Shown: positions 43,977-55,806 of the stretch, piece after piece | Layout of the letters: the number at the start of each line of letters is the position of its first letter | How positions within the stretch are numbered: the first letter of the stretch is position 1 | Source of the DNA: Clostridia bacterium | Lineage (GTDB): Bacteria; Bacillota; Clostridia; Christensenellales; CAG-138 | Length of the DNA stretch: 64,000 bases | NCBI GenBank assembly: GCA_017416425.1 | Contig: JAFQCL010000017.1 | Span: 36,393-100,392 of the forward strand | Direction: 5' to 3' | Notes under the pieces: model-generated | What the model was told of the DNA's origin: nothing | The model's input: only the letters and a program-made list of their open reading frames with translations | The model's database searches: none | Program-made: the position numbers and the translations under genes

Positions 43977-45395
43977 ATGGGACTTTTAAAAGCCGGAATA
44001 GGCGCTCTTGGCGGTGTGCTTGCCGATCAGTGGAGAGAGTATTTTTATTGCGAGTCTATGGCTGCAAATGTACTTGCTGCAAAGGGAGTAAAACGTACCA
44101 GTGGCCGCAGCAGCAATACAAAGGGAGAGGATAACATCATATCGAACGGCTCGATCATAGCCGTAAACGAAGGCCAGTGCATGATGATAGTAGAGCAGGG
44201 CGCTGTTGTGGAGTTTTGCGCTGAAGCGGGCGAATTCGTTTGGGATAGCTCAACAGAGCCTACTATGCTTTATGGAGGTTTTGGCAAGGGTATCAAAAAA
44301 TCCTGGGAAACGTTTAAAAAGCGCTTTACAATGGGTGGAGATACCGGTAAAGATCAAAGGGTGTATTTCTTTAATACAAAGGAAATAATCGGCAACAAAT
44401 ACGGAACGGCAAATCCTGTACCCTTTAGGGTGGTGGATAATAATATAGGCCTTGATATGGATATAGGCATTAAGTGCTTTGGAGAATATTCATACAAGCT
44501 TAGCGATCCCATGCTTTTCTATAAGAACGTATGCGGAAATATAGAAGGCTTTTTTACTCGTGACAAAATAGACAGCCAGCTTAAAAGCGAACTGCTTACA
44601 GCACTTCAGCCTGCTTTCGCAAAGATATCTGGAATGGGTATCCGATATAGCGCTCTTCCGGGTCATACCGTAGAGATGGCGGATGCTTTGAATGAGGTGC
44701 TTTCTCAGAAGTGGAGCGAGCTTCGTGGCGTGCAGGTGGTTTCGTTTGGCGTAAGTTCGGTAACTGCCAATCCCGAGGATGAGGAGACTATTAAAGAGCT
44801 GCAAAAGAGCGCTGTGTTCCGCAACCCCAATATGGCTGCTGCGCATTTGGTTGGCGCACAGGCAGAGGCCATGAAAGCGGCTGCGGCAAATGAAGGCGGC
44901 ATGGGAAGCATGATGGGCTTTATGGGCATGAATATGGCGCAAAACGCCGGGGGCATGAATGCGCAAAGCCTTTACCAGATGGGACAGCAGCCGCAATATC
45001 AGCAGCAAGCGCCCGCCCAGCAGCAACCTGCCGCGGCCGGGTGGAGCTGTTCATGCGGAAATAGCGGAAATACCGGAAAATTCTGCAATGAATGTGGAAA
45101 ACCACAGCCTGTCCCCAAAAAGGACGGTTGGGATTGCGCTTGCGGCGCTACAGGAAATACCGGAAAATTCTGCGCTGAATGCGGAAAACAGCAGCCTGCT
45201 GCTAATGGTTGGACATGTTCATGCGGCGCCGTAAACAAAGGTAAATTCTGCCCGGAGTGCGGATCAAAGAAACCGGCAGGCATACCGCAATATCGCTGTG
45301 ATAAGTGCGGCTGGGAGCCGGGCGACCCGACAAAGCCCCCGAAATTCTGTCCGGAATGTGGGGATCCGTTTGATGATGGAGATGTGAAAGCTTGA
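43977..45395 (+). CDS. SPFH/band-7 (YdjI, COG4260-like) protein with a Gln-rich linker and four C-terminal zinc ribbons
   Basis: 472 aa. The N-terminus MGLLKAGIGALGGVLADQWREYF ... and the body resemble the virion-core-like SPFH family. The C-terminus has WSCSCG..GKFCNECG, WDCACG..GKFCAECG, WTCSCG..GKFCPECG and YRCDKCG..KFCPECG. AAGGAGG RBS. Confidence 0.75.
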   Translation: MGLLKAGIGALGGVLADQWREYFYCESMAANVLAAKGVKRTSGRSSNTKGEDNIISNGSIIAVNEGQCMMIVEQGAVVEFCAEAGEFVWDSSTEPTMLYGGFGKGIKKSWETFKKRFTMGGDTGKDQRVYFFNTKEIIGNKYGTANPVPFRVVDNNIGLDMDIGIKCFGEYSYKLSDPMLFYKNVCGNIEGFFTRDKIDSQLKSELLTALQPAFAKISGMGIRYSALPGHTVEMADALNEVLSQKWSELRGVQVVSFGVSSVTANPEDEETIKELQKSAVFRNPNMAAAHLVGAQAEAMKAAAANEGGMGSMMGFMGMNMAQNAGGMNAQSLYQMGQQPQYQQQAPAQQQPAAAGWSCSCGNSGNTGKFCNECGKPQPVPKKDGWDCACGATGNTGKFCAECGKQQPAANGWTCSCGAVNKGKFCPECGSKKPAGIPQYRCDKCGWEPGDPTKPPKFCPECGDPFDDGDVKA

Positions 45396-45529
45396 TAATA
45401 AAATGTCGCTGCCAAGACGATGGCGGCGGCATTTTTTATGCGGGTATTTCTCTGTACATTAGAAAATGGTTGCCTTTTGGGGAAAATAAAGGTATATTAT
45501 TACATGATAAAGTATACGGAGATGTTGAA

Positions 45530-47191
45530 ATGCTCCTAAATAAAACTACACGTTTTATGTCCGTTATTATGGCTTTTGTCCTGATAATGGCATGCGTTGT
45601 GCCCACGGGCGCGGAAATAGCCGAAAAGCTGCCGGAGAAAAACGCTTCTTTGGCTGACCTTAACGAGGCGCTGAATGTAGAAGGCGGAACGCTTGAGTTC
45701 ACCACGGAGGAATACCCCTTTGCTGCTGTTCATGATGGCGAAATGTACTATGCGCTATCCACAAATGCGGGCGTAGAAAATTCAAGCTCCCTGTTGAAAC
45801 CTACGGTCACCGTTTCTGCAGGTGATATTCTTTTGTTTGACTATCTTTATTATGGGGATCCTGTTTTAAATTTCCTGTCTTTGTATGTTGTAAATGAGGC
45901 CGGTGAGGAAGTGCGGCCGTTCGTTACTGAAGAATCCGATGGAACATGGCAAACCGCTAGTTATACCTTCTCTGCTGCCGGTGAATATGACCTTACATGG
46001 CAGTATTATAATGAGCATGACGGGGCTGGCTATGCTTGTTTAGACAATATCGAGATCATATCGACTTCCGATCCCGACCCGACGCCGACTCCCGCCCCTC
46101 CTGCCCCAGACTTAAACGAGGCTCTAAACGTTGAAGGCGGAACGCTTGAGTTTGTATCACCCGATGGTGATGATTATTCCTTCGTTGCTGTTAATAATGG
46201 CGAAAGATACTTTGCTGAATCGACCAATAGCGGCGTAGGCATGCACAATACCAGGTCTACGATGAGCACTACTGTCAGTGTTTCTGTGGGTGATGTTCTT
46301 TCTTTCGACTATTTTGTCAGCTCGGAACGCTACTGTGACTTCCTGTATTTATACATTGATGGTTTAAATGAAGGCGCCCCTATAGCTGAATTCAGCGGTA
46401 CTGATATGACTGACTGGGACACCTGTACTTACACTTTTACCGAGGGTGGTGAGTATAAGATTGTTTGGATGTATAAACAGGATGGCTCGATTAGTTATGG
46501 TGAAGACCTTGCCCGTATAGACAATGTTGAGCTTATAGATAATCCCGATCCTGATCCAACACCGACGACCGATCCCGTTGCAGATTTAAACGAAGCGCTG
46601 AATGTTGAAGGCGGCAGTTTTGAGTTTACCTCAGACGGAGAATATCCCTTCATTGCTGTGGATGATGGCGAAAGGTATTATGCGGAGTCTACAAATATGG
46701 GCTATGATGAAACAAGCTCCATTGTAAGGACTACTGTGACAGCAACTGCGGGAGAAATACTGTCCTTTGACTACTTTGTAAGCTCTGAGTATGACTACGA
46801 TATTTTTAACGTATATATCGAAGGCGTAGAAGGGTCGATATTTGAGATAAGCGGCGTGATGGGCGGCTGGGCGACCTTTACTTATACCATTCCTGCGGAT
46901 GGCGAGTACACCTTTGTTTGGGAATATAGTAAGGACATGTCTGATAACGGCGGTGAAGACTTTGCCCGCCTTGATAATATTCAGATACTGCCGACTGAGG
47001 TTGTTTTACCTGGCGATGTAGATGGTGATGGTATTGTTGATTCGATAGATGCGCTGCTGATACTGAGGTATGCCATGGGTATCATTGAAGAAGAAGATAT
47101 CGACATTGAAAACGCCGATGTAAATGAAGATGGCGTTATCGATGCTCTTGATGCTCTTTTCGTGCTCCGAATGTCATTGGGTATTGAATGA
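45530..47191 (+). CDS. Secreted dockerin-containing protein with three copies of an unassigned ~155-aa domain
   Basis: The signal peptide begins at MLLNKTTRFMSVIMAFVLIMACVVPTGAEI. Three repeats each open with DLNEALNVEGG(T/S)(L/F)EF and close with LDNI(E/Q). Pro/Thr/Asp linkers (DPDPTPTP). C-terminal type I dockerin duplicated segment DVDGDGIVDSIDAL ... DVNEDGVIDALDAL. Confidence 0.8.
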   Translation: MLLNKTTRFMSVIMAFVLIMACVVPTGAEIAEKLPEKNASLADLNEALNVEGGTLEFTTEEYPFAAVHDGEMYYALSTNAGVENSSSLLKPTVTVSAGDILLFDYLYYGDPVLNFLSLYVVNEAGEEVRPFVTEESDGTWQTASYTFSAAGEYDLTWQYYNEHDGAGYACLDNIEIISTSDPDPTPTPAPPAPDLNEALNVEGGTLEFVSPDGDDYSFVAVNNGERYFAESTNSGVGMHNTRSTMSTTVSVSVGDVLSFDYFVSSERYCDFLYLYIDGLNEGAPIAEFSGTDMTDWDTCTYTFTEGGEYKIVWMYKQDGSISYGEDLARIDNVELIDNPDPDPTPTTDPVADLNEALNVEGGSFEFTSDGEYPFIAVDDGERYYAESTNMGYDETSSIVRTTVTATAGEILSFDYFVSSEYDYDIFNVYIEGVEGSIFEISGVMGGWATFTYTIPADGEYTFVWEYSKDMSDNGGEDFARLDNIQILPTEVVLPGDVDGDGIVDSIDALLILRYAMGIIEEEDIDIENADVNEDGVIDALDALFVLRMSLGIE

Positions 47192-48355: not shown

Positions 48356-49666
48356 TCATTGCTTTAGGGGCTTTACTCGCCTTGCACGATATATCAAGAC
48401 TGTCCCTAAAAGCTCCAAACAATATAGTACAATAAAGCCGATATTGATGATATTCAGATTTTGTTGGGCAATACGAAGATCATCGTGTGTGAAAACGGTG
48501 ATGGGAAGTCCATCCTCGCTGTTTGAGGGCTGTACGCTGTATACGGTTTTATTTCGATAAATATATTCGCAGACAACCTTTCCTTCTTCTGTGCCGTCCT
48601 CTATCCTAACTTCTGTTCGCAAATCTTCGTCTACGGTGATCTCATTTTCAAACTGATCATAATAGAAATTGCTGTAGTTGGGCGCGGCCTGTACAATGCT
48701 GTTACCGTCTCCATACTGGTAGTAATAATCAGGAATATCCTGCTCCATGTAGGCTATGAAGCTATCGAAATCGCTAAACTGTTTTCCCTCGGCTAAAGAC
48801 CAAGGGCTCACTGCTCCATTTACAGAGCTTTGGATGAGGAAAGTTACCGCAAGAATAACGACAGAAGCGATGGCGCAGAGGCGTTTTAGCTTATGATTAT
48901 GCCAATAGACGCGCTCTTCTTTTTCACTCATCGAGTATATACCGATTTTGAGCAAATGAGCGTTTAAAAAATAGAATATGACACCGAATACCAAAAAAGC
49001 AAGGATACCAAAAAGCGATCCGTAGCGGAGCCAAGAATTCGCAGCAAGTCCCACATAGGTATCATAGGGAAAAATGATCAATGGGAGGGTAATACCAAAT
49101 AGGGTCAGTGTCACGCAGGCAGTTCGTTTTGCGATGTTAACTACCGAAGCCTTAAATCGGTTGATCTCCACACCTGTAAGACTCTCATCGGAAACGCTAA
49201 GAAACGCACTGTTTACGAAGATAGCCTGAAAAAGCAGAGCACCCGTATAAAATACTGTACCTACAAAAAAACCTATATATGCTCTTAGAAAACCTAAATT
49301 ACAGATCATGGCCGCGATCAGACCCAGCACAGAGATGCCCATAGCAATAAAGCTGTGGGCACGATACTTAGAAAGATTCATCGTAAGTATTCGCTTTCGC
49401 TGTTTCTCGCTCTTTGCGGATGTTTCATCGGGTTCTGCTGTTCGTTTGGATTCAGGTTTTCTTTCACCACGAAGCAGCTCATCACATGTAACACCAAATA
49501 TCTCAGCGATCACCGGAATCAATGCTAGATCAGGCGCGCCATCGTCCCGTTCCCAGCGACTTACCGTCTTATCAGACACATTTAGTTTTTCGGCCAGATC
49601 TTTTTGTGTCATACCGTTAGCTTTTCTTAATGCTGATATGAATCCGCCGATCGTTTTTCTTTCCAT
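48356..49666 (-). CDS. XRE-family HTH protein fused to a multi-pass membrane domain
   Basis: 436 aa. N-terminal HTH_3 (LRKANGMTQKDLAEKLNVSDKTVSRWERD), then a charged linker, about five hydrophobic helices, a roughly 110-aa soluble segment and a final TM helix. Confidence 0.8.
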   Translation of the reverse strand: MERKTIGGFISALRKANGMTQKDLAEKLNVSDKTVSRWERDDGAPDLALIPVIAEIFGVTCDELLRGERKPESKRTAEPDETSAKSEKQRKRILTMNLSKYRAHSFIAMGISVLGLIAAMICNLGFLRAYIGFFVGTVFYTGALLFQAIFVNSAFLSVSDESLTGVEINRFKASVVNIAKRTACVTLTLFGITLPLIIFPYDTYVGLAANSWLRYGSLFGILAFLVFGVIFYFLNAHLLKIGIYSMSEKEERVYWHNHKLKRLCAIASVVILAVTFLIQSSVNGAVSPWSLAEGKQFSDFDSFIAYMEQDIPDYYYQYGDGNSIVQAAPNYSNFYYDQFENEITVDEDLRTEVRIEDGTEEGKVVCEYIYRNKTVYSVQPSNSEDGLPITVFTHDDLRIAQQNLNIINIGFIVLYCLELLGTVLIYRARRVKPLKQ

Positions 49667-50135: not shown

Positions 50136-50139
50136 TGGA

Positions 50140-50212
50140 TGGAGACGAGGGGATTCGAACCCCTGGCCTATGCGTTGCGAACGCATCGCTCTACCAACTG
50201 AGCCACGCCCCC
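50140..50212 (-). tRNA. tRNA-Ala (anticodon CGC)
   Basis: Hand-folded 73 nt: acceptor GGGGGCG/CGTCTCC including the G3:U70 alanine identity pair, anticodon stem ATGCG/CGCAT with loop TTCGCAA, and T-loop TTCGAAT. Confidence 0.88.
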
Positions 50213-50235
50213 AAGCGCTACCTTTAGCGAAAGCC

Positions 50236-50264: not shown

Positions 50265-50432
50265 CATTTATTTTGATTTTATATAAATATTTATGATTTT
50301 TGCCTGTTTTAATATAGATTCTTTGAACCTCCGAGTCAGTTTGGTGTTTTCAGCACATAAAAAACAAGTTTTTTTAAAAATAAAAACCCCAATCGATATG
50401 ATCGGAGCCTTTACTTGCCTAAAAGCAATTAA

Positions 50433-50505
50433 CGCGCCTGGCAGGATTCGAACCTGCGACCTACCGGTTCGTAGCCGGGCACTCTATCCACTGAGCTACA
50501 AGCGC
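50433..50505 (-). tRNA. tRNA-Arg (anticodon ACG)
   Basis: Hand-folded 73 nt: acceptor GCGCTTG/CAGGCGC, D-arm GCTCAGTGGATAGAGT, anticodon loop CTACGAA, and T-arm GCAGG-TTCGAAT-CCTGC. Confidence 0.88.
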
Positions 50506-50526
50506 AAGCGCTATACAAGCTTTATT

Positions 50527-50646: not shown

Positions 50647-50674
50647 TTGACTGGTTTTTTCTTAATCCTATAAT
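50647..50674 (+). promoter_or_regulatory. Sigma-A type promoter upstream of the terminase gene
   Basis: TTGACT (50647-50652), a 16-nt spacer, then TATAAT (50669-50674), about 95 nt before the TerL ORF. Confidence 0.5.
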
Positions 50675-50769
50675 CATACTTTTACGCTTTTGCAACCTAT
50701 TTGCACCCACTATGCTATACCTTCTTTAATAAAATAAGATGATGGGAATTATGCAAGAAAAAAATCATT

Positions 50770-52122
50770 GTGGAGGTGATGTGTCTGAGGCTGGTGATAA
50801 AAGGAAACTGTAATAAAAAGCAGGAGGAGTTTTTAAGGTCAGAAGCAAGGCATACGGCCTATGGTGGAGCACGCGGCGGGGGTAAGAGTTGGGCTATGCG
50901 TCGAAAGCTGGTACTACTTTCTTTAAAGTATCCCAAGCTAAATTCGTTACTTATGAGAAGAACTCTGCCTGAGTTATATGAAAACCATGTTGTACCGCTG
51001 CTCTCAGAGCTGGCAGGAGTTGCAGAATACACTTCGAGCAAGCGAGAATTCATGTTTCCAAACGGCTCAAGGATAAAGCTTGGATACTGTGATAATAGCA
51101 ACGATATTTATCGTTATCAGGGGCAGGAATATGATGTCATAGGGCTTGAAGAGGCTACTCATTTTACGGAGGAGCAAATGCGTTTTATTACGACATGCAA
51201 CCGCTCTGTAAGACTGGATTTTTCACCCAAAATGCTTTATACCTGTAATCCCGGAAATGTAGGACATGCTTGGGTAAAGCGCCTGTTTATAGATCGTGAC
51301 TTCAGAAGTGGCGAGCGGCCGGAGGATTACGCTTTTATACCTGCCAGGATATATGACAATAAAGTGCTTTTAGAGTCGGATCCCGGTTACCTTATACAGC
51401 TTGAGTCTTTACCTGAGGAGCTTAGAAGGGCTCATCTTAATGGGGATTGGGATGTATTCGCAGGACAGTTTTTTAAGGAATTTGATCGAGTAAAGCATGT
51501 GTGCGAGCCTTTTCAAATTCCGGGTGAGTGGAAGCGTTTTAGATCAATGGACTGGGGCTTTAATGACCCCTGCTGTGTACTTTGGCATGCTGTTAATAAT
51601 GATGGCGCCATATACACATATCGCGAACTTTATGTGAGGCAGCAAAGGGCCGATCAGATAGCAAGGGATATTTTAAAGGAAAGTGGGGATGAACATATTT
51701 CATATACCGTTGCATCACCGGATATGTGGCAAAAGAGAGGCGCAGTGCTTTCATCTCAGGGTGGATACCTTGGGGAATGCATTGCGGAGCTGTTTTTAAA
51801 GCTTGGCGTGCCTCTGATACCTGCGGACAACTCACGAGTGCTTGGTTGGCAGCGTGTTAGGGAATATTTGGCAGAGGATACCTCCGGTAGACCGCGATGG
51901 CAGGCATTTCCCTGCTGCAACAACTTGATCCGAACGCTGCCCATGCTGGTATACGACTCGCATAATCGTGAGGATGCCGCTGACGGCGAGGATCATGCTC
52001 CCGAAGCGCTAAGATATGCTCTTATGTCAAGACCCGGAAAGGCAAAGGTTTATGAGCAAAAAAAAAGCATCTTTGACCCATTTGGTACGGAAGGCGGAAA
52101 AAATACATTTTTTAATTCATAG
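50770..52122 (+). CDS. Phage terminase large subunit
   Basis: 450 aa. It has Walker A GGARGGGKS, a Walker-B-like DVIGLEEATHF, and the nuclease-domain acidic motifs MDWGFNDP and EDHAPEALRY. The start is ambiguous (GTG 50770, GTG 50776 or ATG 50779). Confidence 0.88.
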   Translation: MEVMCLRLVIKGNCNKKQEEFLRSEARHTAYGGARGGGKSWAMRRKLVLLSLKYPKLNSLLMRRTLPELYENHVVPLLSELAGVAEYTSSKREFMFPNGSRIKLGYCDNSNDIYRYQGQEYDVIGLEEATHFTEEQMRFITTCNRSVRLDFSPKMLYTCNPGNVGHAWVKRLFIDRDFRSGERPEDYAFIPARIYDNKVLLESDPGYLIQLESLPEELRRAHLNGDWDVFAGQFFKEFDRVKHVCEPFQIPGEWKRFRSMDWGFNDPCCVLWHAVNNDGAIYTYRELYVRQQRADQIARDILKESGDEHISYTVASPDMWQKRGAVLSSQGGYLGECIAELFLKLGVPLIPADNSRVLGWQRVREYLAEDTSGRPRWQAFPCCNNLIRTLPMLVYDSHNREDAADGEDHAPEALRYALMSRPGKAKVYEQKKSIFDPFGTEGGKNTFFNS

Positions 52123-52133
52123 GAAAGGATAAA

Positions 52134-53648
52134 GTGATGAGAAGAAAAAAACAAAAGCAGGATCAAAAGCGCATAGAGGAGATATATGCGCTTTTTAATG
52201 AGTACATGGATCTGTACGCACAGGAATGGATGCGTCTTGAACGTTGTGAGAAACTCTATCATGGGCAGCATTGGGAGGAGATGCAAGGTGTTGATGAAAG
52301 AGAGCCAAAGCCGGTAACGCCCGTGATCTTTTCAACGGTCGAAAGTATAAGAGCGGATCTATCTGAGATGATACCGGAGGCAGTTATCACCGCTGATGAC
52401 CCGCGTTATGTAGAGGTGGCTGCCACGCTCACGGAGGTTGTACGGGAAAACCATAAGCGAAGCCATTTTGACAGGGAATACCACCGTATGCTTCACGATC
52501 TTTTGGTAGGGGGCATGATGGTACTGGAAGTTGGTTTTGATCCTTATGCTGCAGGCGGAGTCGGAGGTGCATTTTTAAAGCATGTCGATTCAAGAAGCAT
52601 AATGTTCGACCCATACTGTACCGATATACAGGACTCAAGAGCCATATTTAAATTTAAGCCCCATCGCAGGGAATGGTACTTTAAGTATTATCCTGATTAT
52701 GCCGATATGATGATTTCAGATGGATATACCCATGATAAAACAAGGGATGCCTTTGCTTCGCTTGATCAGAGCGATACCATAATGCTCATAGAGTGCTGGG
52801 AGCGAAAATTTAACGCAAAGACAGGAAAACATGAGGTTCATATGTGTAAACTGGCTGGAAGCGTAATGCTTGAGGACAGCAGCGTATCTAAGTCATATGG
52901 CTATTTTGAACATGGATTTTATCCCTTTGTAGCAAGCGCCCTCTATGAACGCAAGGGAACCTATCTTGGCTACGGAATAGCGGATATGTTTGAAAACAGG
53001 CAGCTCGTTGCGGATAAGCTGGATCAGATAGTGCTAAAAAACGCGCTGATGGCATCACATAATAAGCTTTTGATCACGGGCGCTTCGGGATTTGATGCAA
53101 ACGATCTTCGTGATTGGTCCAAAGAGGTACATGAGGGTGACAGCTTAAGCGGAATAAGCTGGTTTTCAACAGCTCCGCTGCCGGCATATGTGTTTGAATA
53201 CATGGAATCAGTAAGAAGCAGCATAAAGGAGGAATCCGGTTCCAACGATATATCGCGAGGAAGTGTTGCGGCAGGAGTTACGGCCGCAAGCGCCATTGCA
53301 GCGCTGCAGGAGATGGCAAGCAAAAGGTCGCGCCTTGCACAGAGGAGCATATATGCGGCATTTTGCGAAGCTGTACAGCTTGAGATCAATATAGAACGTG
53401 AATTTTCAATACTTCCAAAGCTGAGTGAGCTTAAGCTTAGCAGGATTCCAACTGAAATGCAGGTAAGTGTAAAGGTACAGCATGCAAACGCATTCAGTAC
53501 CATTTCACATAATGAATTGATTTTAAGTCTTGTGCAGCACGGAATAATAAAGCAGGATGTTGCGCTTGATCTTATGATTTTCGAAGGAAAGGAGCATGCA
53601 ATATCGCTTATGAAAGAGTATACCAATAAAAGCGCTGCGGCAAACTAG
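52134..53648 (+). CDS. Phage portal protein (SPP1 gp6-like)
   Basis: 504 aa. It has typical portal size and position directly after TerL, with a conserved N-terminal W-rich region (YHGQHWEEM ... PVTPVIFSTVESI). Confidence 0.8.
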   Translation: MMRRKKQKQDQKRIEEIYALFNEYMDLYAQEWMRLERCEKLYHGQHWEEMQGVDEREPKPVTPVIFSTVESIRADLSEMIPEAVITADDPRYVEVAATLTEVVRENHKRSHFDREYHRMLHDLLVGGMMVLEVGFDPYAAGGVGGAFLKHVDSRSIMFDPYCTDIQDSRAIFKFKPHRREWYFKYYPDYADMMISDGYTHDKTRDAFASLDQSDTIMLIECWERKFNAKTGKHEVHMCKLAGSVMLEDSSVSKSYGYFEHGFYPFVASALYERKGTYLGYGIADMFENRQLVADKLDQIVLKNALMASHNKLLITGASGFDANDLRDWSKEVHEGDSLSGISWFSTAPLPAYVFEYMESVRSSIKEESGSNDISRGSVAAGVTAASAIAALQEMASKRSRLAQRSIYAAFCEAVQLEINIEREFSILPKLSELKLSRIPTEMQVSVKVQHANAFSTISHNELILSLVQHGIIKQDVALDLMIFEGKEHAISLMKEYTNKSAAAN

Positions 53649-53666
53649 ATAAAAAGGAGGTGTGCT

Positions 53667-53807
53667 ATGAAGAAAAAAAGACGCCAAAGGCTTACTCGGG
53701 CGCTGGTAGATACAGGCAAGGGCTTTATTAGATCCGATGTGCTTGGAAGCTTTACAGGCATGGGCGAAGATGGCGATAGGCCGGTACAGGATGCAGAGGA
53801 TCTTTAA
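53667..53807 (+). CDS. Small basic/acidic hypothetical protein (46 aa) after the portal gene
   Basis: AAGGAGG RBS 7 nt before the ATG. Sequence: MKKKRRQRLTRALVDTGKGFIRSDVLGSFTGMGEDGDRPVQDAEDL. Below the ORF-track length cut-off. Confidence 0.5.
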   Translation: MKKKRRQRLTRALVDTGKGFIRSDVLGSFTGMGEDGDRPVQDAEDL

Positions 53808-53825: not shown

Positions 53826-53863
53826 TTTTTTTGGGGCTCGGGGCTTTGCCCCGAGCCCCAAAA
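53826..53863. other. 16-bp GC-rich perfect hairpin at the distal edge of the phage remnant
   Basis: TTTTGGGGCTCGGGGC ttt GCCCCGAGCCCCAAAA. There is no trailing U-tract beyond the paired A/T ends. Confidence 0.6.
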
Positions 53864-54074: not shown

Positions 54075-55340
54075 CTAAACTATCGCAATTGATGAGATGT
54101 TATATCCAAACAAAGAGGTTTCATCGGGGATAAGGCATATCTCGACCCTGGTTGATACACAGGATACGGAACCGCCGGGATGGCCGGACATAAGCCTTCC
54201 CACCAGGGTTATAGCACCTAAGTCGTCCGAAAAGGCATCTTGATAATCCATGCCGTAAAACAGGTTGATACCAGTGTCGGTAATGGCATATGTATCCTCA
54301 TTAAGCGTGACAAAATCGGCGTTTGCAGGCAGGCTTTGCAATATGTCTGTATCAAAAATACCAAAATAAGCAGCGTCATAGTCCGCTTTATCTATAAGGA
54401 TAGCGCCTTCGGTGCGCTGATAATCACCGTTTAAAAAGTAATTTGCCATGGTATAAGCGGCAGAATATGGGTCAGGCGTACCGTTGAAGCTTGTTTGTCC
54501 CTGCATAGTGATCGCTGTTAAAAGGTCATCGATAATGAGCCTTATACCCGAAAAAGCGTTTGTACTTATGATATCCCCTACAAAGCCTGGCTGCAGAACT
54601 CGTGAGGGTATTTCAAAGCTGTGACTGCCGTATGCGCTTACTACACCCGCATCAATATAGATGATAAATCCGTCAGAGGTCACCTCATAGCCGTTAAAAA
54701 GATCGATAGCCGCTGAAATGTTGCTAAGCTCTATATCGTGGTAGTAAACGGAACCAGAATCATCCGATCCACGGATAATTTGAAGTATCTGCTGGCCTAC
54801 AATATCATTTGGATCGTAAAGTCCCACAACATAGCCAAGCGAGCGCTCGATACCCTGCTCATCCGCAACGATCACATGAGTATTTGTAACGACATCAGAA
54901 CCAAAACTGCTTTCATCGGTAAACACTATATTGGTATAACCTCGTGCAAAGCGAACGCTGCATGTAACGTCGGTATATGGGAGGATAAGCTCCGTAGAAT
55001 CCGCATAGGGCACCCTTTCCTGACTGACACCGATCAAAAGCGTATCAAGGTAGTGTGAAACTGCCGAATTGAGCTCATCGGCATGGATATGGCTTTCACT
55101 GCTGAATTTGGGTATGGTATAGGTCAGTCGATAGTTTGCACTATCCTCTGTGCTGTTTGCGGGATAGTAGATCGTAGTGGTTTCAAGCTCAATAACGCTA
55201 TTTTCAGGCGAATCATCTGGGGTATATTCCGGATACGAAGGCGGGGTTATTAGGGTCGGCAGTTCAGTGGGAACTTTGCAAGCGCTAAAACAAAATATTA
55301 AGAAAAATGCTAAAAAAAGCGAAAAATTAATTTTTTTCAA
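54075..55340 (-). CDS. Hypothetical lipoprotein (possibly DUF4163/DUF3298-like)
   Basis: 421 aa with signal peptide and lipobox FSAC. The domain guess rests only on general resemblance to RsiV/PdaC-type extracellular domains. Confidence 0.6.
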   Translation of the reverse strand: MKKINFSLFLAFFLIFCFSACKVPTELPTLITPPSYPEYTPDDSPENSVIELETTTIYYPANSTEDSANYRLTYTIPKFSSESHIHADELNSAVSHYLDTLLIGVSQERVPYADSTELILPYTDVTCSVRFARGYTNIVFTDESSFGSDVVTNTHVIVADEQGIERSLGYVVGLYDPNDIVGQQILQIIRGSDDSGSVYYHDIELSNISAAIDLFNGYEVTSDGFIIYIDAGVVSAYGSHSFEIPSRVLQPGFVGDIISTNAFSGIRLIIDDLLTAITMQGQTSFNGTPDPYSAAYTMANYFLNGDYQRTEGAILIDKADYDAAYFGIFDTDILQSLPANADFVTLNEDTYAITDTGINLFYGMDYQDAFSDDLGAITLVGRLMSGHPGGSVSCVSTRVEICLIPDETSLFGYNISSIAIV

Positions 55341-55572: not shown

Positions 55573-55806
55573 ATGAAAAAAATATGTAAAAATGGTGTTT
55601 TGACCAAGAAGGAAAAAACAGAGATAGCGAAGGTATTGATGCGGCTCTGTACGGATGAATCTCAAAAGCCGACCGACAGAATTTCTGCGGCAAAGCTATT
55701 GATAGATATGGATATAAAGGCATCGGAGAAGGAGCCAGATGGTGATGATGCGCTACATGTCGTATTTGAAGGGGCTGTGCCCGGGTATGTGAGTAAGCTC
55801 AAATGA
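55573..55806 (+). CDS. Short ORF resembling the C-terminal part of a phage small terminase subunit (possible gene fragment)
   Basis: 77 aa. PTDRISAAKLLIDMDIK is like the conserved (D/E)R(I/L)KAAELLGK helix of TerS proteins. No N-terminal HTH region and a weak RBS. Confidence 0.35.
   Translation: MKKICKNGVLTKKEKTEIAKVLMRLCTDESQKPTDRISAAKLLIDMDIKASEKEPDGDDALHVVFEGAVPGYVSKLK

Follow-up and report, generated by a model that had tools for sequence, protein, structure and literature searches.

To our knowledge, GTAs were known almost only from Alphaproteobacteria before 2026. RcGTA and the other alphaproteobacterial GTAs consist of domesticated phage genes that are inherited vertically across a large clade and lie at several loci, with a small terminase (TerS) that has no DNA-binding specificity and a head that is too small for the element's own genes. 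RcGTA, of siphovirus origin and with a head-tail cluster of HK97 type, is regulated by CtrA and by quorum sensing. PBSX of Bacillus subtilis is myovirus-like, contiguous and equipped with a contractile tail; it forms a killing particle and packages host DNA. Borodovich et al. (Nat Commun 2026; PMC12946183) have since described FpGTA of Faecalibacterium prausnitzii, in which the ten ORFs of operon I include a TerS without a DNA-binding domain, the large terminase (TerL), and portal, scaffold, capsid and short-tail genes, and the particles measure about 40 nm. The same study describes GTA-like packaging of fragments of roughly 4 to 7 kb in two Christensenellaceae-labelled MAGs, HGM11616 and QANA01, and assigns no genes to it. 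This paper (PMC12946183) was the only relevant one that we found in the literature on a Christensenellales GTA gene cluster.

We analyzed a 64,000-nucleotide stretch of a Clostridia bacterium genome (contig JAFQCL010000017.1 of assembly GCA_017416425.1), hereafter called the window, which contains two phage morphogenesis genes on its plus strand. TerL (450 aa, an ATPase and nuclease; positions 50770..52122) matched Terminase_3 (1.5e-10) and Terminase_6N (3.2e-9) in Pfam and phrog_979 (2.2e-49) in PHROG, and a portal of the P22/SU10 type (504 aa; 52134..53648) matched P22_portal (6.6e-22), SU10_portal (9.6e-10) and phrog_156 (3.6e-41). The TerL stop and the portal start are 12 nt apart, and an ATG at 50779 may be the true start of TerL in place of the GTG at 50770. 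Each gene is present in a single copy in the window's genome, where we found no second TerL and no HK97-type capsid family.

Open reading frames, Pfam and PHROG matches, and catalytic motifs agreed that both genes are full-length and intact, as the original prediction had stated. The TerL motifs it listed (Walker A GGARGGGKS, the VIGLEE segment, MDWGFNDP and EDHAPEALRY) were all present, and these segments align with the corresponding segments of the solved terminase 5oe8. Comparison with homologues, which had been proposed as a check of catalytic integrity, showed that D261, E286, D396, D402 and H409 are invariant across 15 aligned TerLs, as are Walker A and the catalytic Glu128. The VIGLEE Walker B, which reads LEE, reflects an Asp-to-Glu change found across the whole lineage. 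Since prophage-like relatives (the G013 copies) carry the same Glu, we do not regard it as a sign of decay, and the comparison suggests that the change is probably harmless. Hidden frameshifts had been raised as a possible refutation; four further metagenome assemblies from three studies contained no indels or stops in TerL, in the portal, or in the two small genes described below (p46 and c3), and differed from the window's genes by just three synonymous and two conservative changes.

Behind the portal lies p46 (53667..53807, plus strand), which encodes a 46-aa protein whose N-terminus is basic and whose C-terminus carries an acidic motif of the GSYTG...PVQDADDL type. The original prediction had noted this 46-codon ORF as standing beside the pair; it is present, and a strong ribosome-binding site (AAAGGAGGTG, 7 nt upstream of the ATG) together with tblastn homologues (E<1e-3) directly after the portal in 12 other loci, all in the window's half of the family, indicates that it is more than mere filler. 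A word-index search with p46 retrieved only p46 itself, and the Atlas returned only unnamed clusters of 46-48 aa proteins (scores 0.90-0.91), which serve as a lead only. A GC-rich hairpin of 16 bp (53829..53863) between the convergent p46 and lipoprotein genes scans as a minus-strand terminator and likely also acts on the plus strand to end the TerL-portal-p46 transcript.

Upstream of the pair, the near-consensus promoter that had been predicted about 95 nt before TerL was found as a sigma-70-type promoter-like site (TTGACT-16-TATAAT; 50647..50674, plus strand) that matches 11 of 12 consensus positions and lies 96 nt before the GTG. Its spacer is 17 nt in all four of the other metagenome assemblies, which carry an extra T behind position 50654. 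A housekeeping-type, near-consensus promoter would be unexpected if GTA expression were rare or tightly controlled, and it counts against a GTA-like reading. In the regions before TerL at 23 distinct related loci, and in those before the other G000 loci, neither a common operator nor a sporulation-type promoter was convincing. TTGCA-type repeats recur upstream in the window and in loci L004, L046, L009 and L075, and enrichment over shuffles was limited to 6-mers that are T-rich words or TTTTGC, for which terminators could account. Further upstream are a tRNA-Arg(acg) gene (50432-50506, minus strand) and a tRNA-Ala gene (50136-50213) that the original prediction did not include. We considered a tRNA as the integration site and rejected it: because none of 14 relatives' TerL loci has a tRNA nearby, the proximity of tRNA-Arg to the pair is incidental.

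No integrase, capsid or tail genes lie within about 8 kb on either side of the pair, in keeping with the original prediction, which had also reported no TerS. That part did not hold, as we identified at 55573..55806 (plus strand) a gene, c3, for a 77-aa small-terminase derivative that comprises an oligomerization core and a C-terminal tail and has no N-terminal DNA-binding domain; its open frame spans just 79 aa. Homologues occurred in 11 of 36 family genomes, all within the window's clade, and nine of these 11 lie at most 7 kb from TerL or the portal. A profile search returned 137 relatives, and the c3 profile matched the region of TerS just behind the N-terminal Terminase_2/HTH domain. Among 24 longer relatives that we scanned, four had a Pfam Terminase_2 or Sf6_terminase domain (one of them, P0115, under the Pfam cut-off), which in the clearest cases sits N-terminal to the c3-like part, and 10 matched PHROG small-terminase families. 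An hhalign comparison with the gp3-like TerS of the sister clade gave modest values (E=3e-4, probability 40%). Judged mainly on the profile search, c3 is derived from TerS, and it would presumably work as one; a complex prediction for TerL and c3 (score 0.07) weighed neither way. A small terminase without a DNA-recognition domain is a feature looked for in GTAs, and Sherlock and colleagues are said to have described it, in 2019, as a hallmark of GTA terminases.

The original prediction had called the pair an orphan and had suggested searching the genome for a matching capsid cluster in a split, GTA-like arrangement. The pair is an orphan within the window only, since matching capsid, neck and nozzle genes stand at a second site of the same genome, formed by contig C40 in reverse joined to the start of contig C2. 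In order, this site encodes a scaffold, the major capsid protein (C40:393-1589; phrog_1357, 2.5e-67), the repeat-bearing protein c2, a BppU_N-like protein, p79, an SU10-type adaptor (SU10_adaptor, 1.9e-7) and the c4 protein. A structure model of c4 (pLDDT 76) matches a tail nozzle of the P22-gp10/T7-gp12 type, with Pa223 among the podovirus tail hubs giving E=6.6e-22 and a TM score of 0.68 and with further matches to P22 gp10, SU10 and T7 gp12. The SU10_adaptor match and the nozzle model thus point to podovirus-type neck and tail proteins, as in FpGTA. The 307-aa BppU_N-like protein, whose BppU_N match is weak (E=0.0049, under the Pfam cut-off) and whose nearest Atlas cluster is named BppU_N (score 0.91), is a candidate receptor-binding protein. 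A transporter gene is located inside this second locus, and a non-systematic look recognized no holin or endolysin.

TerL and the portal lie on contig C13, whose end is at least 16 kb away, and in this assembly of 41 contigs (95% complete) that figure is a lower bound on the distance between the two loci. The corresponding loci are at least 32 kb apart in genome G002. With head capacity taken by analogy, genes spread over loci this distant would not be packaged together, as is expected of a GTA. The window's genome also has four tyrosine recombinases, all on other contigs.

We next turn to the family as a whole. A close TerL (61-71% identity; E<=1e-150) was present in 115 of 129 other family genomes and in 37 of 41 genera. 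TerL was nearly always single-copy, with two copies in two genomes, and two of the matches contain TGA; since 14 of the 129 genomes are without a close TerL, the system is dispensable. Among 36 sampled genomes, 33 had the portal (at least 41% identical in 31) and 32 the capsid protein. The trees of TerL and RpoB (26 taxa) had 12 of 23 splits in common, including an identical basal split, whereas 2000 label shuffles shared 0.2 splits on average and never more than 3, and the distances were correlated (Mantel r 0.63, p=1e-4). Identity to the window's proteins across the family was 59-74% for TerL, compared with only 66-75% for RpoB. The least saturated pair gave a dN/dS of 0.065 for TerL and 0.060 for the portal and other pairs gave 0.05-0.22, all of these pairs leaving out the window's own genes, at which synonymous sites are saturated (pS 0.79-0.89). 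TerL is vertically inherited within the family, and TerL and the portal are under purifying selection; this combination within a host clade, seen in prevalence, RpoB congruence and dN/dS alike, is what a GTA is expected to display. A strictly host-tracking temperate phage lineage could likewise give congruent trees, and the one argument against it is that the genes are scattered.

The arrangement of the genes differs between the two halves of the family. One half has a contiguous ten-gene operon of TerS, TerL, portal, scaffold, capsid, p79, adaptor, nozzle and two unknowns, and all 12 cases of contiguous TerL, portal and capsid fall in it. In the window's half, the capsid gene is elsewhere or rearranged, and in one subclade TerL is split from portal and capsid. 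The genes flanking TerL and the portal vary between genera. No integrase, replication or lysogeny genes adjoin any locus examined, and packaging and structural genes standing without such genes are a further GTA trait. TerL relatives outside the family are at most 53% identical, and their neighbouring portals and capsids were not matched by the queries used.

We consider it probable that TerL, the portal, p46 and c3 make up the DNA-packaging half of a particle system that is GTA-like and was domesticated from a podovirus. As part of this reading as a whole, the best account of its history is that the ancestor of this Christensenellales-like family already carried the system, which has passed down vertically from then on. 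Under such a system, the capsid protein and scaffold would assemble procapsids on the portal ring, and TerL, aided by a TerS stripped of its DNA-recognition domain, would dock onto the portal. TerL would then cut host DNA and pump it in by a headful mechanism with no sequence preference, and the adaptor and nozzle would seal the particle. With at least 16 kb between the two loci, such a particle would be unable to carry its own genes.

The original prediction had left the choice between a very recent prophage deletion and retention for a host function, and family-wide conservation, co-divergence with RpoB and purifying selection support the latter. A prophage near tRNA-Arg that was freshly deleted except for TerL and the portal, whose ORFs have not yet decayed, could explain why the pair stands nearly alone in the window beside two tRNA genes, and also why flanking genes vary between genera. 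We give this explanation almost no credence, however, as it is at odds with the presence of TerL in 115 of 129 genomes, with its agreement with RpoB, and with a dN/dS of about 0.06-0.2, which shows no relaxed selection. Nor did any of the relatives examined carry a full prophage at the site; no tRNA is near the loci of 14 relatives, the pair sits on the 5' side of the tRNA in a contig region without an integrase, and the genome has kept the matching capsid and neck genes intact at another site. Cryptic prophages are typified by sporadic, strain-specific presence at an integration site and by ORF decay, and we saw neither; because synonymous sites are saturated, the family-wide copies are also not independent recent insertions. 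The 14 genomes without a close TerL and the two copies with an in-frame TGA would fit a slowly decaying, functionless relic conserved by chance or linkage, yet all six or more partner genes remain open in lineages whose RpoB identity is no more than 66-75%, dN/dS stays at 0.06-0.2 while synonymous sites are saturated, and catalytic residues are invariant, which makes a relic very improbable.

The set could also belong to a helper-dependent, capsid-forming, PICI-like satellite that has its own capsid and packaging genes, borrows tails from a helper phage and spreads horizontally, and its content of head and packaging genes, with no long-tail genes among them, bears a superficial resemblance to such islands. 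We regard such a satellite as highly unlikely: capsid-forming PICIs keep an integrase, a replication module and a regulator in one excisable island, whereas here the loci examined have no integrase, no replication or primase gene and no regulator module beside them, many genomes have the genes spread over two or three loci, single copies track the host phylogeny, and the set has its own podovirus adaptor and nozzle. A domesticated particle with a role other than transfer is an unlikely explanation that still deserves weight. It might be a bacteriocin-like or killing particle, as has been proposed for PBSX, serve DNA disposal or DNA release in biofilms, or act as an anti-phage decoy that titrates or senses the packaging of incoming phage, although no precedent is known to us for a host that encodes TerL and portal as a decoy defence. 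The conservation evidence fits such a role equally well, and no lysis module or clear receptor-binding module was recognized. Intact ATPase and nuclease motifs in TerL and the TerS derivative nevertheless argue that DNA may be packaged, and the nozzle, adaptor and BppU_N-like protein point towards a delivery apparatus. For FpGTA, too, the published study (PMC12946183) leaves undecided whether the particle delivers DNA or behaves like PBSX, which also favours a role of this kind.

Returning to the GTA-like reading, we can also advance a bolder version of it, to which we give slightly less than an even chance, in which the gene set is an ancient, family-old GTA, its packaging enzyme conserved about as well as RpoB, and the genetic basis of the 4-7 kb GTA-like packaging observed for Christensenellaceae MAGs in virus-like particles from human faeces, with the window's lineage displaying domestication in progress. 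If so, this lineage would have broken the operon into separately transcribed pieces, cut the small terminase to a 77-aa core without a DNA-binding domain, and gained a new 46-aa partner gene behind the portal. The only gut example known to us, FpGTA, is tied to a single genus, and the same study saw GTA-like packaging in several other Clostridia, Christensenellaceae among them, without genes being named (PMC12946183). A family-wide, vertically inherited, podovirus-type set would offer concrete candidate genes for the Christensenellaceae packaging activity, and such systems could be as old as a bacterial family. Running from an intact operon to dispersed loci and from a complete TerS to its mini form, these genomes would provide a natural series in which to study the conversion of a phage into an organ of its host. 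For annotation, isolated terminase and portal genes in these genomes should not be taken for prophage debris.

Among known systems, PBSX is alike, by description only, as a phage-like particle retained by a Gram-positive host. The gene order of P22/Sf6/SU10-like podophages and of prophage relatives (locus L036 of genome G042), namely TerS, TerL, portal, scaffold, capsid, adaptor and nozzle, is also that of the element, whose portal matches both P22_portal and SU10_portal, whose adaptor matches SU10_adaptor, and whose nozzle is predicted to share the fold of P22 gp10 and SU10. L036, the nearest prophage-like locus, is only 34-38% identical to the family element and has retained a complete TerS of the Terminase_2 type, a Cro/CI-type regulator gene as a neighbour and a tail protein of 678 aa, all of which the family element lacks; unlike these prophage relatives, the family element is chromosomal and vertically inherited. 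With RcGTA it shares domestication, vertical descent, dispersal and a TerS without a DNA-binding domain, as well as, presumably, a head too small for its own genes, and it differs in being of the P22/SU10 podovirus type and in residing in a spore-forming Firmicute.

The closest parallel is with FpGTA, which we compared by architecture; Faecalibacterium did not appear among the best 80 loci listed in our scan of genome contigs. The host orders are not the same, and FpGTA is described as a demonstrated particle, whereas the element here is known from genes alone. In the window's genome the core operon is broken between portal and scaffold, behind portal and p46, and its 77-aa TerS is displaced downstream of the portal; the second FpGTA locus is reported to hold tail, receptor-binding and lysis genes, and here no holin/endolysin locus was recognized. 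Both are podovirus-type sets of head, packaging and short-tail genes in gut Clostridia, both combine a TerS without a DNA-binding domain with TerL, portal, scaffold and capsid, and both occupy more than one locus, have no replication or lysogeny genes, and are nearly ubiquitous in their host group. The contiguous ten-ORF core operon, too, is found in relatives of the window's genome (L054-L057, L089 and L091), with L057 and L091 showing the likeness to that of FpGTA.

The original prediction placed the terminase (TerL) and portal genes and their motifs correctly: the ORFs, promoter-like site, tRNA-Arg and TerL alignment all agree with it. TerL (50770-52122, + strand; 450 aa) matches Pfam Terminase_3 and Terminase_6N and phrog_979 (2.2e-49), and the portal gene (52134-53648, + strand; 504 aa) matches P22_portal (6.6e-22), SU10_portal and phrog_156 (3.6e-41). 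Across 15 aligned TerLs, the Walker A motif, catalytic Glu128 and nuclease residues D261, E286, D396, D402 and H409 are invariant, and Walker B reads LEE instead of IDE throughout the lineage, prophage-like copies included. A TerL profile aligned with the solved terminase 5oe8 over 389 positions, with the motif segments falling opposite its Walker A, FDE and nuclease motifs. A promoter-like TTGACT-16-TATAAT (50647-50674) lies upstream of TerL, and tRNA-Arg (50432-50506) and tRNA-Ala (50136-50213) are both on the minus strand; no tRNA was found near TerL in any of the 14 relatives' loci examined.

The pair is surrounded by ordinary host genes, encoding an XRE-type membrane protein, a short-chain dehydrogenase, a dockerin protein, a lipoprotein and a GNAT protein, with sigE and spoIIGA farther along. 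The XRE-type HTH protein, which has a large membrane domain, is encoded divergently upstream of TerL (48356-49666, - strand) and is a possible local regulator; in G001, a genome of the same genus, the position directly 5' of TerL is likewise taken by an HTH protein related to it (37% identical across the HTH). All four further metagenome assemblies compared have an additional T in the T-run of the promoter spacer (50653-50668; 17 versus 16 nt), reflecting either a length polymorphism or a homopolymer assembly error. Just 3' of the -10 box are two TTTGCA(A/C)CC repeats, 11 nt apart (50690-50720); TGCA-type repeats also occur 5' of TerL at some relatives' loci (L004, L046, L009 and L075), with unconvincing enrichment. 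Farther upstream, an SPFH/Band-7 protein (43977-45395, + strand) carries a C-terminal string of repeated CxxC zinc-ribbon-like units, and beside it is a 599-aa protein (45392-47191, + strand) with three internal repeats of ~150 aa and a C-terminal dockerin.

In relatives, the pair occurs with genes for a gp3-like small terminase (TerS), scaffold, major capsid protein (phrog_1357) and SU10-type adaptor, along with other virion genes. We searched the window's own genome (G000; 1.63 Mb, 41 contigs, 95% complete; window at C13:36393-100392) with the relatives' particle proteins and found a second locus holding scaffold, capsid, adaptor and c4 genes, so that the pair is not the orphan it had been taken for. 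The scaffold and capsid genes lie on the 2.6-kb contig C40 (capsid, C40:393-1589), the 495-aa c4 protein is encoded at the start of contig C2, and the c2 gene spans the break between these contigs; the locus also encodes the small protein p79 and a protein of 307 aa that matches BppU_N weakly. This virion-associated gene contains at least five tandem copies of a 78-bp (26-aa) repeat, the break falls within that array, and the contig ends (L042:1-320 on C40 and L044:1-340 on C2) overlap at 97-99% identity. Because the contigs abut in the c2 repeat with the frame continuing across it, they form one locus. The c4 model (pLDDT 76) matches podovirus tail hubs and nozzles, with Pa223 best (E=6.6e-22), followed by P22 gp10, SU10 and T7 gp12. 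The genome yielded no further TerL, portal, HK97-type capsid or TerL_ATPase-family gene, and its four tyrosine recombinases are on other contigs. A transporter gene interrupts the second locus; it is of the DMT family (L044:2083 onward), and a 33%-identical one lies directly 5' of TerL in the relative G007 (L027:7016-8005), possibly as a relic of a shared ancestral context or by coincidence. Most capsid proteins of the family carry an insertion of ~80 aa (residues ~240-320 in G000) that may be an added surface domain; it is missing, with matches split in two, in the prophage-like relatives G042, G050, G053 and G047 and in family members G003, G012 and G015.

Nor is the pair accompanied by a mere 46-codon ORF. 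That ORF, p46, is preceded by a strong ribosome-binding site and is conserved, immediately after portal, at 12 further loci, and the window also holds c3 (55573-55806, + strand; 77 aa), past a genus-specific lipoprotein gene. Of 36 family genomes sampled, 11 have a c3 homologue, all of them belonging to the window's half, and in nine it lies no more than 7 kb from TerL or portal; genomes of the other half instead carry a gp3-like TerS immediately 5' of TerL. A profile search of 1.84 billion representatives returned 137 relatives of c3, mostly of 60-110 aa. Among 24 longer ones scanned, four have a Terminase_2 or Sf6_terminase domain, in the clearest cases N-terminal and just before the c3-like part, and ten match PHROG small-terminase families. 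By hhalign, c3 matches the sister clade's TerS over its C-terminal 34 columns (E=3e-4). On these sequence comparisons, c3 is read as a putative small terminase in which only core and tail remain and the DNA-binding domain is missing. The 421-aa lipoprotein between p46 and c3 (54075-55340, - strand) belongs to no known family; the three genomes of the genus all have it at this place (33-36% identity) and other genera do not, and it is an insertion into the module that is specific to the genus.

A close TerL (E<=1e-150; 61-71% identity) is present in 115 of the 129 other family genomes with a completeness of 90% or more, and with the window's genome these cover 37 of 41 genera. Two of the 129 carry two TerL copies, and two matches contain an internal TGA. 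The doubled copies, in G035 (C61 and C24, both adjoined by portal and capsid) and G148 (two C1 sites ~26 kb apart), could reflect duplication, strain mixture or transfer. Of the 36 sampled genomes, 33 have portal and 32 the capsid protein; G013 and G026 have only prophage-like, more distant copies, G019 has capsid protein and c3 with TerL and portal absent, and no copies were found in G011 or G034. Among the matches listed, the public sequences closest to the window's TerL come from records titled Christensenella sp., Christensenellaceae bacterium and Candidatus Pelethousia.

The original prediction had offered two explanations for an intact pair, a fresh prophage deletion or retention for a host function, perhaps in a split GTA-like arrangement. 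One half of the family has a contiguous ten-gene operon (TerS, TerL, portal, scaffold, capsid, p79, adaptor, nozzle, c24 and c2; for example L057 and L091, from Christensenellaceae bacterium), and by gene positions all 12 genomes with contiguous TerL-portal-capsid belong to it; a subclade within it has TerL separated from portal-capsid. Genomes of the window's half have capsid either on a different contig or 5-8 kb upstream. Flanking genes are not syntenic between genera, and the break points follow clades, as expected for rearrangement of a resident host gene set. Within the family, identity to the window's protein is 66-75% for RpoB and 59-74% for TerL. Quick-search trees of TerL (42 rows) and RpoB (38 rows), leaving out G014 and four genomes whose RpoB was partial or absent, had 26 taxa in common and shared 12 of 23 splits (2,000 label shuffles: mean 0.2, maximum 3; Mantel r 0.63, p=1e-4), with an identical basal split and one strongly supported local conflict. 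The least saturated pair gave dN/dS of 0.065 (TerL) and 0.060 (portal) and other pairs 0.05-0.22, comparisons involving the window's own genes being saturated. TerL, portal, p46 and c3 are free of indels and stops in four further metagenome assemblies, which come from three studies; one of these studies may be the source of the window's DNA. We reject a fresh deletion; retention in a split GTA-like arrangement is supported, the search for capsid, neck and nozzle genes having found the second locus. Particle production by the G000 system, like the content and release of any such particles, is inferred.

Our literature search found no paper besides PMC12946183 that deals with a gene set of this kind in Christensenellales. 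That paper also reports GTA-like packaging for MAGs labelled Christensenellaceae, where read lengths peak at ~4-7 kb and no genes are assigned. The Faecalibacterium prausnitzii gene transfer agent, FpGTA, is described there as a ten-ORF operon of a TerS without DNA-binding domain, TerL, portal, scaffold, capsid and short-tail genes, with tail, receptor-binding and lysis genes at a second locus, and its particles are ~40 nm with 8.4-8.9 kb of DNA inside (PMC12946183).
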